This document shows, one piece after another, positions 2,635-12,876 of a stretch of 12,876 bases of DNA (positions within the stretch are counted from its first letter, which is position 1; each line of letters begins with the position of its first letter). The notes below the pieces were generated by a model. That model did not search any database, was not told the DNA's origin, and saw only the letters and a list, made by a program, of their open reading frames with translations. Where the stretch lies: contig JAZDHP010000039.1 in NCBI GenBank assembly GCA_043805855.1, forward strand, positions 1 to 12,876, in the 5' to 3' direction. Position numbers and translations under genes: made by a program. This DNA is from Candidatus Micrarchaeota archaeon (GTDB taxonomy: Archaea > Micrarchaeota > Micrarchaeia > Norongarragalinales > UBA8480).

Positions 2635-3321
2635 TTAAGCAGGTACTTCGTTTGCTTGTGTGTTTTCTTCAGCTTCTTCTTTTTGTTCTTCCTGCGTTTC
2701 AGGCTGTTCAGCTGGTTTTTCCTGCGATTCGACTTGTTCTATGTCAAACACTTCTTTTAATTCAGTTTTGTAGATTTCAATTCTCTTTATTGGAAAGAGC
2801 TTTTTCAATTCGCCGAGTAGTTCAGTCGACGCTTTGCCGCGGAGAACCTCGTTGATGAACTTGCCGAAGTCTTCGTTGGAGATTTTATTTCGCAATGAAG
2901 TTGCAAGTGTTGAACGCAATACGTGGCGCTGTGAGGAACTGGCTTTACCGTTTGTTACAATTAACACTTTTACTGTGAATTCAACGCCGTCGCTTGACTT
3001 GACTGGCAAAATGTTGTAAAGCATTGACCTGTTTCGACGGCCTAGAGCTTGAATGTGCTCGCGTGCCAACGCGTGGCCGATGAATTTTGAATAGGCGTTT
3101 TTGCCTTTTATCTCTTCAACTCGCAATTTCACATTTATGTACATGTGTGACAAGTCTTTCGTAATGTCTTTTAATGGCATTTCGATAATTCTATTAAGCA
3201 AGTGAACTGGATCTTGTGCTGGCACTTGCGCTACTTCAACTTCGTTGAATAGCTTTGGTGCAATTAATGTAAACCACTGTTTTACTTTCCAAGTGTCAAT
3301 TGCTTTTTTCTTAACTGCCAT
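2635..3321 (-). CDS. rps3ae: 30S ribosomal protein S3Ae (eS1), with acidic C-terminal tail
   Basis: KKKAIDTWKVKQWFTLIAPKLF, NRIIEMPLKDITKD and KKLFPIKRIEIYK motifs. SD GGTGA. Downstream of rps15 as in other archaea. Confidence 0.95.
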   Translation of the reverse strand: MAVKKKAIDTWKVKQWFTLIAPKLFNEVEVAQVPAQDPVHLLNRIIEMPLKDITKDLSHMYINVKLRVEEIKGKNAYSKFIGHALAREHIQALGRRNRSMLYNILPVKSSDGVEFTVKVLIVTNGKASSSQRHVLRSTLATSLRNKISNEDFGKFINEVLRGKASTELLGELKKLFPIKRIEIYKTELKEVFDIEQVESQEKPAEQPETQEEQKEEAEENTQANEVPA

Positions 3322-11225: not shown

Positions 11226-11921
11226 CTATTTGCCAAGCGGCATTGTTTTCACCGCATCTATAGCTGCACTTACCCGCTCGTAGGCTTTTGCCGCGTCGCG
11301 CTGTGCAAATACAAATGTTATCTTTCCACGAGTGGAAAAAACATCTTCAATATTAATACCTGCGATTTCAAACTGCTGCGCGAAAAACTGAAGAAGCCCG
11401 GGCACCTCAAAGTTCATCTGCTGAACGTCAACAGTAATTATTGACAAGTTAACAACTTTCACAGAAAGCTTGGCAGGGGAATTAATGCGCGATTCAATAA
11501 TTGGAAGAAAGCGCGAGTTACAAAGTATAACTAATTCGTTTGACCGCGCAATTACGTAAAATTTTTCACCAGCTTTAAAGTCAACTTCTGGCAAAATTTG
11601 TTCAATTTCCTTGAGAAACTCAACTTCCGGCCACTGTTTTATAACAAGCAAACACATGTCACTTCTTAAAATAATCTTACACCCGCGAACAGATTCAAGC
11701 AATTTCGGCGACTTGAAATTCGCAGGTCGCAATTGAATATGTCTTCGTACGGCAACAGCAACTGCATCTAAACTAGCTTCGCCGCCCATCTTTTCAGAAA
11801 CAACAGGAAGAATAAACCGCGCAACAGCAGAATAATTTAACAAATCATAGTCAATAGAAGCACGGAGAAACGTTAACTCACCAAGCACTTCACGCACTGC
11901 GTCGGAAACCGAATAAACCAA
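11226..11921 (-). CDS. Archaeal ACT-domain-containing protein (N-terminal helical/HTH-like domain plus ACT domains)
   Basis: LLNYSAVARFI...DAVAVAVRR N-terminus and VPGLLQFFAQQFEIAGINIEDVFSTRGKITFVF ACT signature. TTG start with upstream GGGGTTGA. Confidence 0.8.
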   Translation of the reverse strand: MVYSVSDAVREVLGELTFLRASIDYDLLNYSAVARFILPVVSEKMGGEASLDAVAVAVRRHIQLRPANFKSPKLLESVRGCKIILRSDMCLLVIKQWPEVEFLKEIEQILPEVDFKAGEKFYVIARSNELVILCNSRFLPIIESRINSPAKLSVKVVNLSIITVDVQQMNFEVPGLLQFFAQQFEIAGINIEDVFSTRGKITFVFAQRDAAKAYERVSAAIDAVKTMPLGK

Positions 11922-11999
11922 AATAAATCAACCCCAATAAACTAAATGCAAAAAAATAGCTAAGCTGCAAAAAAGCCAGTTAAGAAAAGAAGCAAAACA

Positions 12000-12018
12000 A
12001 GTATAAAAACCTTCCGAA
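12000..12018 (-). promoter_or_regulatory. BRE/TATA promoter for the ACT-domain gene
   Basis: Minus strand reads TTCGGAAGGTTTTTATACT, about 80 nt upstream of the TTG at 11921. Confidence 0.45.
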
Positions 12019-12101
12019 ATACGACAAATTATTCGTAAAAACTACACGCCGTTCTTTTTGCTACAAAATCTCTTAAATTTGTCACTACTTGATCAAAAAA
12101 A

Positions 12102-12118
12102 CGGAAACTATTTATATA
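12102..12118 (+). promoter_or_regulatory. Strong BRE/TATA promoter with no coding gene directly downstream
   Basis: CGGAAACTA-TTTATATA. The expected TSS at ~12137-12142 coincides with the 5' arm of the terminal helix GCAGGAG. Confidence 0.65.
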
Positions 12119-12136
12119 CCCATTTTGTAAGGTTTT

Positions 12137-12361
12137 GCAGGAGGTGCTAAACAGCACATAGATAAAAAAACAGATGTAGGTAAAGAGACAGTGTGTTGCG
12201 TGCTGGGAAACAGAACAAGTTTGTGAACGGACCAAGCTAACTCAACTAGGGAGGTTATCCCGTATATAGTTTTGATGTCTTTGGCCTTTGGTTTAAAACC
12301 GTTCGGAATCGCGACCCCTTTCAAGCAAAGAAAAGCGGTTACAAAAAAACAAACTCCTGCG
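12137..12361 (+). ncRNA. Putative structured non-coding RNA of unrecognised family (~225 nt)
   Basis: Has its own TATA box, terminal helix GCAGGAG(12137-43)/CTCCTGC(12354-60) and six further compatible helices found by eye. A T-run lies at 12388-12394. No convincing ORF. Confidence 0.55.
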
Positions 12362-12379
12362 TACCAGCTCGTCACCTTC

Positions 12380-12417
12380 AAAACTAATTCTTTTAAAACT
12401 AGTAAATCATTAGTTTT
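12380..12417 (+). promoter_or_regulatory. TATA box (TTTTAAAA, 12391-12398) flanked by a 9-bp inverted repeat; probable leaderless promoter
   Basis: AAAACTAAT (12380-12388) and ATTAGTTTT (12409-12417). The ATG at 12420 is ~21 nt after the TATA, with no SD. Confidence 0.5.
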
Positions 12418-12419
12418 AC

Positions 12420-12791
12420 ATGGCTAAACAAGAACCTTGGCATAAACGCGCAGCGCGTGCTTTTGGAAGTATTGTAAAAACCAGCAAGAGCGAAACTCAT
12501 GCAACTAGTCGAGAGCATCCCAAGCACCTAGTTGTTTTTGCGAACTGGACAACGGAATCTCCCGGACGTCGAAAACAGCATTTTAAAGTAGCTCAAGTTG
12601 TCGTGAGAGGAGCTAAAACTTACGGAAGCGATATTATAGTCAAACGAGATGGCACGTTCATCTTGCCAGCTAGACAAACTAATTTAGGTTCAACACATAC
12701 GCTACTGCCAATAACCAGAGTGCGCGAGCTAAGCCAAATGGCAAAAGTAATACAAGCAGCGCACAAGGCACTGCTTCAACACGCAAAATAA
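12420..12791 (+). CDS. Hypothetical basic protein (123 aa)
   Basis: ORF with TATA at leaderless spacing. K/R/H-rich, with no recognised motif. Confidence 0.65.
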   Translation: MAKQEPWHKRAARAFGSIVKTSKSETHATSREHPKHLVVFANWTTESPGRRKQHFKVAQVVVRGAKTYGSDIIVKRDGTFILPARQTNLGSTHTLLPITRVRELSQMAKVIQAAHKALLQHAK

Positions 12792-12794
12792 CGT

Positions 12795-12875
12795 TTACGC
12801 TTCAAATTCTTCAATTTGCGTTAAGTATTGGTCGTCGCTTAATATGCGGCCTTGGGCTTTGAGCACTTCTCGAGC
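12795..12875 (-). CDS. 3' end of an unidentified gene running in from beyond the window
   Basis: Open minus frame AREVLKAQGRILSDDQYLTQIEEFEA* ends at a TAA (12795-12797), converging on the 12420-12791 gene. Confidence 0.6.
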   Translation of the reverse strand, partial: AREVLKAQGRILSDDQYLTQIEEFEA

Positions 12876-12876
12876 A

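Follow-up and report, generated by a model that had tools for sequence, protein, structure and literature searches.

A 12.9-kb contig of an archaeal genome assigned to Candidatus Micrarchaeota (contig C39 of genome G000; 1.03 Mb, 92% complete), analysed here in its entirety and referred to as the window, carries a real, previously undescribed structured RNA gene of narrow phylogenetic range. We read positions 12140-12380 of the forward strand as a stand-alone gene for a structured non-coding RNA (ncRNA) of about 240 nt belonging to an undescribed family, a reading to which we give a probability of roughly 0.7. Newness here means an RNA family without a relative in Rfam, and no proven new mechanism is claimed. 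The gene sits in a 498-nt intergenic gap between the reverse-strand gene of a 231-aa protein with DUF7523-like and ACT domains and a 123-aa open reading frame (ORF) on the forward strand (12420-12791). A stand-alone structured ncRNA of an undescribed class had been proposed in an earlier description of the same stretch (hereafter the preliminary description), and the proposal is now supported by covariation, by the lack of an Rfam match, by a downstream gene that is not conserved and by an RNA contig.

To our knowledge, very few large structured archaeal RNAs are known beyond rRNA, tRNA, signal recognition particle (SRP) RNA, RNase P RNA and guide RNAs. Here, a DPANN genome of about 1 Mb with little spare DNA keeps an intergenic region of about 500 nt for a 240-nt RNA. 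A well-supported new fold is a target for structure work and for the hunting of partners, while its fixed pairing with an ACT protein opens a testable way into gene regulation in organisms not yet amenable to growth on their own.

Homologues and synteny

When the gap was compared by blastn with 40 relatives, matches were returned in two genomes only, both of the same genus (74% and 79% identity), and the match spans the promoter and the proposed RNA, not the remainder of the gap. Homologues of the protein encoded by the neighbouring ACT gene occur in 53 of the order's 68 genomes. A profile of the RNA (nhmmer) matches all eight metagenome loci that were fetched via this neighbour protein, with expect values (E) of 6e-39 to 2e-67; of these, L037 is a duplicate of L036 and was not used in later alignments. 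A covariance model (CM) of the core, R1, which covers window positions 12170-12373, scores 170-231 bits on ten genus-level sequences. A further full-length homologue is found in G007, a genome of another genus of the same family, which scores 28.7 bits (E ~1e-6) with R1 and 115.6 bits with R2, the model obtained after adding G007.

Across the 68 genomes of the order, the CM search gave a convincing match only in G000, G001, G002 and G007, one copy in each, and none outside genera g1 and g5. In a genome of the genus that is 62% complete, the CM search yielded no copy, and a search of 26 far loci with the filters off reached a best E of 0.004. The preliminary description had proposed collecting homologues by synteny with the ACT gene, and homologues were indeed found beside that gene in 11/11 related loci (two genera of Candidatus Micrarchaeota and eight metagenome contigs), the RNA lying upstream of and divergent from the DUF7523-ACT gene in every one of them. 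These searches show the window RNA to be a single-copy, syntenic gene.

Covariation and the corrected fold

Because folding energy does not set the region apart, the case rests on comparison with relatives. The RNAfold z-score against shuffles, a check that the preliminary description had suggested, is -1.21 for 12137-12361 on the forward strand (22 of 200 shuffles were as good), -1.16 for the opposite strand and -1.29 for the corrected bounds 12140-12380.

On a plain MAFFT alignment, RNAalifold predicted 48 pairs, of which 12 show compensatory changes. MAFFT had shifted helix L1 by one column in half of the rows; L1 was added by eye, resulting in a core model of 46 pairs. This model was scored on a plain MAFFT alignment that was not fitted to structure (A7) and on a CM-fitted alignment that includes G007 (A9). 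On A7, 88.9% of cells are paired against 82.3% in shuffled alignments, 16 pairs carry double changes against 9.4, and the covariation score is 0.279 against 0.162. The corresponding values on A9, which was fitted to, and so is biased towards, the tested structure, are 91.4% against 80.0%, double changes in 26 of the 46 pairs against 14.4, and 0.401 against 0.195. On both alignments, none of 500 shuffles reaches the observed share paired, double changes (as pairs or as cells) or covariation score, though the ten genus-level sequences are kin and cell counts therefore overstate independent events. A slid control, with the 3' partner moved by 1-3 columns, left 36-47% paired on A7 and 40-47% on A9. 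For the number of further pair types the observed value did not stand out, 467/500 shuffles reaching it on A7 and 48/500 on A9. On these alignments, comparison shows the fold to be under selection.

In the corrected topology (Table 1), helix T1 closes the RNA, L1 and L2 are stacked, and a three-way junction of L2, a long irregular arm and the h8/h9 arm lies inside L1 and T1. The unconstrained minimum free energy (MFE) fold of 12140-12380 recovers T1, L1, L2, L3, the long arm and h8/h9. Relatives rewrite several of these helices: L1 reads CGCGUUGG/CCAACGCG in L036 and CGAGCGCGUUAA/UUAGCGCGCUCG in G007, and G007 replaces L1, h8 and h9 wholly (h8 as UUGUG/CACAA, h9 as CUCC/GGAG). A conserved unpaired stretch of 40 nt holds GUGUAGG and GAGACAGUG, and the unpaired boxes are kept in G007 as GUGUAGAC..AGAGAUGUGU.

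T1 and hairpin Ha, which lie outside the core CM, were examined by script. In the window, GGAGGUG (12140-12146) at the 5' end pairs with CACCUUC (12373-12379). A pentamer complementary to N-GAGG occurs 1-3 nt past L1 in 9/11 sequences. T1 has five Watson-Crick pairs in eight of nine sequences, the outer pair being G-C in four, U-A in four and A-U in one; G002 has one A.C mismatch at the outer-pair position, and the search of the 11 sequences found no T1 partner in G007. The counterpart of Ha in G007 is GGUGG/CCACC. In the MFE fold Ha is absent, and its 3' strand, CAGCACAU (12152-12159), pairs with GUGUGUUG (12191-12198) of the conserved box. All genus-level sequences allow either pairing and G007 supports Ha only; the alternation between them may be a conformational switch.

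The fold in the preliminary description had been drawn by hand. Every string quoted there lies at the position given; as a whole the fold is 77.5% paired on the ten-sequence MAFFT alignment, and while some of its helices hold, its terminal helix and junction type do not. The proposed terminal helix GCAGGAG/CTCCTGC is 64% paired, with two pairs that hold in only 1-2 of 10 sequences, and the four-way junction is not conserved, the core being a three-way junction. The hairpin CTG/CAG (38.5% paired) and the pairing AGGT/GCCT (66%) were also given up, and AACCGTT/AGCGGTT (78.6%) was beaten by AAUCGC/GCGGUU (95%, three covarying pairs). The comparison sustains the four inner base pairs of the second helix, which is our Ha (covarying pair C-G, U-A or U-G), the GGGA/UCCC arm and the inner CTTT/AAAG hairpin. 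From AACTA/TAGTT, the three outer pairs stand (covarying AU/GC, AU/UA and UA/CG) and were adopted as h6b.

Other elements of that fold are of mixed standing. AGTTTG/CAAGCT does form pairs, but these show no variation within the genus and are in competition with L2 and h4; G007 cannot form this hairpin and favours L2 (UUUAU/GUAAA). GAGACA/UGUCUU (P3b; 3' strand at 12276-81) is 91.7% paired, but shows one-sided changes only and no compensatory change; in the corrected topology it would be a pseudoknot competing with h6. The two AAAAAAACA linkers (12164-72 and 12343-51) both exist, but the pair is peculiar to G000 and the second is half of L2.

Table 1 Positions in the window of the RNA, its structural elements, its flanking signals and the neighbouring protein gene
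Feature	Positions	Strand	Remarks
Window RNA	12140-12380	+	about 241 nt; CM hits, covariation
T1, 5' strand GGAG	12140-12143	+	inside GGAGGUG 12140-12146; partner 12376-12379
Hairpin Ha, GUGC/GCAC, loop UAAACA	12144-12157	+	pair 13:21 is C-G in 3, U-A in 5, U-G in 2 sequences
Unpaired boxes (A/G)UGUAGG(A/U)AAA and GAGACAGUG(U/C)GUU	12174-12197	+	between Ha and L1; near-invariant in A6/A7
L1, 5' strand GCGUGCUGG	12198-12206	+	partner CCAGCUCGU 12364-12372; double changes in 8/9 pairs on A9
L2, 5' strand GUUUGU	12219-12224	+	partner ACAAAC 12349-12354; 96.7% paired on A7; G-C becomes A-U in G007
Long irregular hairpin arm	12228-12301	+	L3, h4, h5, h6, h6b, h7
L3	12228-31/12298-301	+	3-4 covarying pairs
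h4, CCAAG/UUUGG	12232-36/12287-91	+	invariant but paired
h5	12237-39/12282-84	+	invariant but paired
h6	12240-43/12274-78	+	
h6b, AACUA/UAGUU	12244-48/12267-71	+	three covarying pairs
h7, GGGA/UCCC, loop GGUUA	12249-52/12258-61	+	3-4 covarying pairs
Conserved bulge UUUAAAA	12292-98	+	
Conserved junction UUCGG(A)	12302-12306	+	between the two hairpin arms; UUCGGA in 8/10 genus-level sequences
Second hairpin arm	12307-12340	+	h8, internal loop, h9, loop CAAGC
h8, AAUCGC/GCGGUU	12307-12/12335-40	+	95% paired, 3-4 covarying pairs
h9, CUUU/AAAG, loop CAAGC	12318-21/12327-30	+	
L2, 3' strand ACAAAC	12349-12354	+	partner GUUUGU
L1, 3' strand CCAGCUCGU	12364-12372	+	partner GCGUGCUGG
T1, 3' strand CUUC	12376-12379	+	inside CACCUUC 12373-79, which resembles the 16S tail CACCUCC
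T-run TTCTTTT	12388-12394	+	likely archaeal oligo-T terminator (putative function)
Archaeal promoter	12100-12118	+	purine-rich, B recognition element (BRE)-like AACGGAAACT, then TATA box TTTATATA (12111-12118); kept in all 11 genus-level sequences
Conserved upstream box TTTGTCACTACTT	12078-12090	not assigned	directly upstream of BRE/TATA; almost invariant in three genus genomes (A1)
231-aa protein	11226-11921	-	DUF7523-like N-terminal part (helical), then tandem ACT domains; synteny with the RNA in 11/11 loci

Promoter, transcript ends and expression

The BRE/TATA that the preliminary description had placed at 12102-12118 is present and conserved in relatives, positioned 22-29 nt ahead of the 5' end of the RNA. 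Expression and strain differences were taken from assembled contigs of public runs, compared over a 901-nt stretch. In a groundwater metatranscriptome, a 100-nt contig of depth 33 matches 12141-12215 without a mismatch and stops at 12141, about 26 nt past the middle of the TATA box, before running into an A-rich loose end. A transcription start at about 12140/12141 is thus supported by promoter distance and by the contig end, and the contig fits an abundant small RNA. Of the transcript expected in the preliminary description, the library holds the 5' part; no RNA contig fell on the rest of the RNA, its flanks or the remainder of the 901-nt stretch, which is no sign that a transcript is absent there. 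Among these data, X2 covers 11900-12021 only. A DNA contig from a ~93% identical strain spans the whole stretch, with 40 differences listed and 18 more unlisted; three of the listed ones fall in the 241-nt RNA (12262-64, in one loop), two upstream and 35 from position 12399 on.

The 3' end would lie at about 12380-12394, as judged from the terminal helix T1 and the T-run behind it, and the end given earlier (12361) has been revised to ~12380 on the strength of the T1 3' strand and the T-run. The supposed TATA box of the next gene at 12391 reads as this T-run, a likely terminator. Most relatives have T-rich runs roughly 10-70 nt past the end of L1. At the other end of the RNA, GGAGGUG (12140-12146) is a perfect Shine-Dalgarno (SD) complement of the G000 16S tail (GAUCACCUCCA). 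The box at 12078-12090 may be a regulator site or a piece of the divergent promoter region.

Several points weigh against a stand-alone gene of a new family acting in the manner proposed below. Strong homologues are limited to one genus and one family-level genome, so many of the double changes are inherited, not independent; A9 carries the bias noted above; h4 and h5 never vary, and h5 and h6 compete with the GAGACA/UGUCUU pairing. By folding energy the region gives a weak signal (z from -1.2 to -1.3). Expression is represented by one assembled contig that covers 75 nt, and such contigs show no strand, ends or level, while the 3' end is placed through T1 and the T-run, not by a mapped end. 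The trans target, the partner and control by the ACT protein are proposals of our analysis, and binding of DNA or RNA by the N-terminal domain of that protein remains a guess. Lastly, a shorter RNA-like leader with a small membrane-protein ORF beside the ACT gene in other genera leaves a cis-regulatory ancestry possible.

A second RNA and the possible origin of the gene

A second and likewise undescribed RNA-like element, the C13-type RNA, lies at G000:C13:~3040-3190 (+) (L057 ~640-790; also L059), beside a gene for a LigT-like 2H phosphoesterase. It is about 100-150 nt long and holds no ORF. By blastn it was found in 27/41 relatives and in 11/11 genomes of the family, with at most four copies per genome, and over a core of about 19 nt the identity between families is 90-100%. 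The closing helix is GAGACAGUGGUG...CACCAC, and AACCCC precedes the hairpin AAGGA-GGCAA-UCCUU; judged by eye, this hairpin and the helices GUGGUG/CACCAC, AGAGAA/UUCUCU and GGC/GCC change in step among relatives. RNAalifold on the MAFFT alignment returned 10 pairs only, the 3' half being misaligned, and Rfam gave no match for the RNA in eight C13-type loci. An RNA that is order-wide and multi-copy suggests that there is more unknown RNA biology in these organisms than annotation shows. In G027, a C13-type core is found ~900 nt away from the RNase P RNA (L070 2491-2629 (-), G027:C24; 33 bits, truncated by the end of the locus).

The C13-type RNA is like the window RNA in its boxes GAGACAGUG and GUGUAGG, in a hairpin with GGAGG in the 5' strand and a YWAU-type loop, in its SD-like purine runs and, in other genera, in having the same ACT-gene neighbour. 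It is unlike the window RNA in being shorter, in its helix order and in having several copies per genome.

In other genera, the place beside the ACT gene is occupied by a promoter, followed ~25 nt downstream by (G)GAGGUG and then by a 130-170-nt leader with an invariant AACCCCAAGGAGG, which runs into an ORF for a hydrophobic two-helix membrane protein of 59-76 aa that belongs to no Pfam family. Loci with an ACT-adjacent leader are L016, L019, L029, L030 and L012 (f11 g19), L021 (G006), L023 and L026 (g2) and L025 (f2). The g19 leaders carry an invariant CACGUAACCCCAAGGAGG. Between the leaders of these loci the stems differ in sequence yet are complementary (e.g. GAAGGGCGCC/GGCGCCUCUUC against AAGGAGG/CCUCCUU). 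Elements with ~18 bits to the RNA model were seen in genus g3, at G005:C29:17234-17419 (-) (L073 1501-1686) and at G011:C26:4464-4650. These adjoin Memo-like and uS2 genes, directly past a 61-aa membrane-protein ORF, and no ACT-gene match was found in g3. Their motif order, GAGACAGUGG ... AAAGGACAACC ... AUGGAGGUUUUCCAU, looks intermediate between the window-type and C13-type RNAs.

It is possible, if doubtful, that the window RNA is an enlarged, lineage-specific paralogue or descendant of the C13-type RNA (core AACCCCAAGGAGGCAAUCC) in which the leader's ligand- or protein-binding role was kept after loss of the ORF. Such a descent concerns the origin of the RNA and can coexist with a stand-alone gene. 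It would be consistent with the promoter, (G)GAGGUG, leader with CCCCAAGGAGG and hydrophobic ORF at the same syntenic place in other genera, and with the presence in G000 itself of a C13-type RNA that has GAGACAGUGG, GUGUAGGG and the hairpin AAGGA-GGCAA-UCCUU. R2 also matches weakly at syntenic spots (L029 with 18.1 bits, E 0.004; L016 with 11 bits; L021 with 10.9 bits), and g3, with weak full-length matches beside uS2 and a C13-like motif order, is a possible bridge. However, a C13-type profile finds only the short GAGACAGUG box in window-type RNAs (E 13-48 each), blastn with the C13 RNA does not match the window RNA, and R2 does not match C13 in G000. The shared motifs stand in a different order in the two RNA types, and GAGACAGTG occurs five times in the genome against ~8 occurrences expected by chance, by our own arithmetic. 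The hairpin of the C13-type core AACCCCAAGGAGGCAAUCC within GUGGUG/CACCAC and AGAGAA/UUCUCU is not found in the window RNA, where CCAAG and GGGAGGUUAUCCC are 13 nt apart and other helices enclose them.

A bolder and rather improbable version unites the window RNA with the C13-type RNA in a single large, undescribed RNA superfamily of Micrarchaeota with two branches, marked by SD-like GGAGG hairpins, GAGACAGUG and GUGUAGG. With the DUF7523-ACT protein it would form an amino-acid-responsive switch, acting in cis on a small membrane-protein gene in most genera and here, freed of its ORF and enlarged, as a trans decoy or scaffold that mimics a ribosome-binding site at its 5' end and the 16S tail at its 3' end.

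Alternative identities

We consider it quite unlikely that the element is a cis-acting 5' leader (riboswitch, attenuator or protein-binding operator) of the downstream gene, here the 123-aa ORF. That ORF does begin 40 nt past the RNA on the same strand, the RNA-like leaders beside the ACT gene in other genera run into a small ORF, and the SD-like and anti-SD-like runs at the ends of the RNA could gate translation. Yet a T-run follows the terminal helix, and the downstream gene varies: G000 has the 123-aa ORF, G001 has one of 99 aa that looks unrelated, and in 6/11 loci the convergent uS2 gene comes next or almost next (uS2 being identified by Pfam in G002 and by sequence likeness elsewhere). 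Moreover, the 123-aa ORF diverges fast in the close relative while the RNA does not. As an observation on its own, this ORF matches no family in Pfam or NCBIfam, forms an insertion that separates the RNA from the convergent uS2 gene, and changes far faster than the RNA in the ~93% identical strain; G001 and L038 have other small ORFs of ~98-99 aa in the same place, in either orientation.

Less credible still is a very diverged member of a known family, whether SRP RNA, RNase P RNA, an H/ACA or C/D guide or a tRNA-like RNA. In its size and its closed outline, a rod with a junction, the RNA is reminiscent of the SRP S domain or of small RNase P RNAs; like archaeal SRP RNA and RNase P RNA, the window RNA is a few hundred nucleotides long, with paired ends, long-range helices leading to a two-arm junction, and unpaired boxes. 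The conserved motifs of those RNAs (helix-8 loops, P4/CR-I/CR-V) were, by contrast, not seen in it by eye. Rfam 15 (4227 families) gave no match in the window at gathering scores, and at E <= 10 over the region a single chance match, to the C/D RNA snoU2-30 (E 3.7), fell outside the RNA and on the other strand. The CMs of archaeal SRP RNA (RF01857) and RNase P RNA (RF00373) matched nothing in the window, whether at their gathering scores or with E up to 10, and ARAGORN found no tRNA or transfer-messenger RNA gene there. Both of the former RNAs are accounted for elsewhere in G000, each below its gathering score: SRP RNA at C1:2668-2939 (69.7 bits, E 6.4e-16; gathering score 96.5) and RNase P RNA at C20:5180-5525 (50 bits, E 1.7e-13; gathering score 84). 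The 5S, 16S and 23S rRNAs are on other contigs as well, which counts against the diverged housekeeping RNA that the preliminary description had entertained as an alternative; its failure to match the RNA to tRNA, SRP RNA, RNase P RNA or either class of guide was borne out.

Wider Rfam searches agreed with this. Ten loci beside ACT-gene homologues, among which only L009 carries the window RNA, gave no match to such an RNA, and over the related and C13-type loci (eight C13-type) there were chance-level matches to mir-202 (E 0.34) and EGFOA-assoc-1 (E 0.9). An argument for an H/ACA guide is an ACA after the h8 stem in G000; this triplet reads ACA, UCA or CCA among relatives, and inspection by eye of h8/h9 found a 3' loop side of 4 nt, an upper stem of 4 bp and no tandem G.A or GA-GA kink-turn, with no H/ACA match in Rfam. 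As to a C/D guide, relatives do not keep the sole UGAUG (12273-77). The RNA is no more similar to the 16S/23S rRNA of G000 than shuffles are: a fragment or mimic based on GAGACAGU, CCAAGG, UUUAAA and GUUCGG was rejected, with local scores of 25 and 21 that lie within shuffles whose means are 23 and 22. A GGA-motif sponge was dropped as well (5-6 GGA against ~4 expected, our own count by eye), and antisense targets of the conserved boxes in the genome were limited to short matches at chance numbers. Full-text searches of the literature on ncRNA or small RNA (sRNA) in DPANN or Micrarchaeota, subscription journals lying outside their scope, listed no paper describing such an RNA.

A small protein gene (e.g. 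the 89-codon minus-strand frame 12112-12381) or a non-autonomous mobile repeat is about as implausible, since the ORFs of 51-89 codons that overlap the RNA have nothing in Pfam, no frame is kept open among relatives (longest open stretch per frame 26 to 83 codons), single-base gaps dominate (56/88 gap runs), variable columns show no 3-nt periodicity (50/46/49 by codon phase) and each genome holds a single copy, always in the same syntenic position. By these comparisons of sequence, the window RNA is shown to be non-coding.

Possible function and known systems

Taken as a stand-alone ncRNA gene, the element would be transcribed from its own BRE/TATA, starting at about 12140/12141 and probably stopping at the T-run 12388-12394. 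We suggest tentatively that the RNA acts in trans, as a ribonucleoprotein scaffold or a regulator. A protein or another RNA might be bound by its invariant unpaired boxes together with the UUUAAAA bulge and the UUCGGA junction, which is likewise a suggestion short of even odds. Candidate contact surfaces would be GUGUAGG(A/U)AAA, GAGACAGUG, GGAAAC past L1, the UUUAAAA bulge, the UUCGGA junction and the h7 loop GGUWW, because these segments never vary although they are unpaired. Since its divergent pairing with the RNA is fixed and the box at 12078-12090 is conserved, the divergently encoded, amino-acid-sensing ACT protein could govern transcription of the RNA, though we hold this with no great confidence. 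A role at the ribosome or in translation control is conceivable, because the 5' end complements the 16S tail and the 3' strand of T1 resembles it.

The neighbouring 231-aa protein is probably a small-molecule (amino-acid) sensor, since its AlphaFold2 model (predicted local distance difference test score 88.8) matches the tandem-ACT regulatory domains of aspartate kinases in Foldseek (E ~1e-7). Over the protein family, Pfam finds DUF7523 (weakly) in 14/17 members and ACT_7 in 12/17; for the N-terminal 82 aa, the ESM Atlas returned unnamed or DUF7523 clusters only.

Bacterial sRNA genes that are divergently paired with their own regulator include gcvB-gcvA, oxyS-oxyR and sgrS-sgrR. The window RNA resembles these in the divergent gene of a small-molecule sensor (11/11 loci) and in the conserved box upstream of the RNA promoter, whereas its host is an archaeon and the partner has DUF7523 and tandem ACT domains, with putative nucleic-acid binding, instead of being a LysR- or ROK-type DNA binder. 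Unlike typical base-pairing sRNAs, it is far larger and more tightly folded. Orphan structured ncRNA motifs from the comparative genomics of intergenic regions fill much of Rfam, and the window RNA shares with them its setting in a long intergenic stretch of a compact genome, a promoter and terminator of its own, a fold maintained through compensatory changes and a narrow phylogenetic range. It differs from them in matching none of the 4227 families of Rfam 15 and in having a DPANN archaeon as host.

Genome context and further observations

The gene content of the window is otherwise common archaeal housekeeping: Pfam identifies the ribosomal proteins S3Ae, S15, S28e and L7Ae, class I tRNA synthetases of the Ile/Leu/Val/Met and Glu/Gln types, and a polyprenyl synthetase. 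The contig apparently ends within the 3' part of the convergent uS2 gene (12797-12876, reverse strand), as judged by sequence likeness; GCTTCAAATTCTTC near the contig end resembles the uS2 gene ends of L039 and L040.

On contig C5 of G000, the 16S gene (62463-64899) spans 2437 nt and the 23S matches (55607-61835) cover ~6.2 kb in two pieces. Because these spans far exceed the mature lengths, large insertions (introns) seem to be present in both genes. A possible third small RNA lies at G000:C34:~2045-1950 (-) (L058), upstream of a gene for a CYTH-domain protein, with its elements in the order of a TATA-like box, AAAUUGAGACAGUGGUAGAGAAAAAAGC, the GC hairpin GGGGCU-CACAA-AGCCCC and a U-run.

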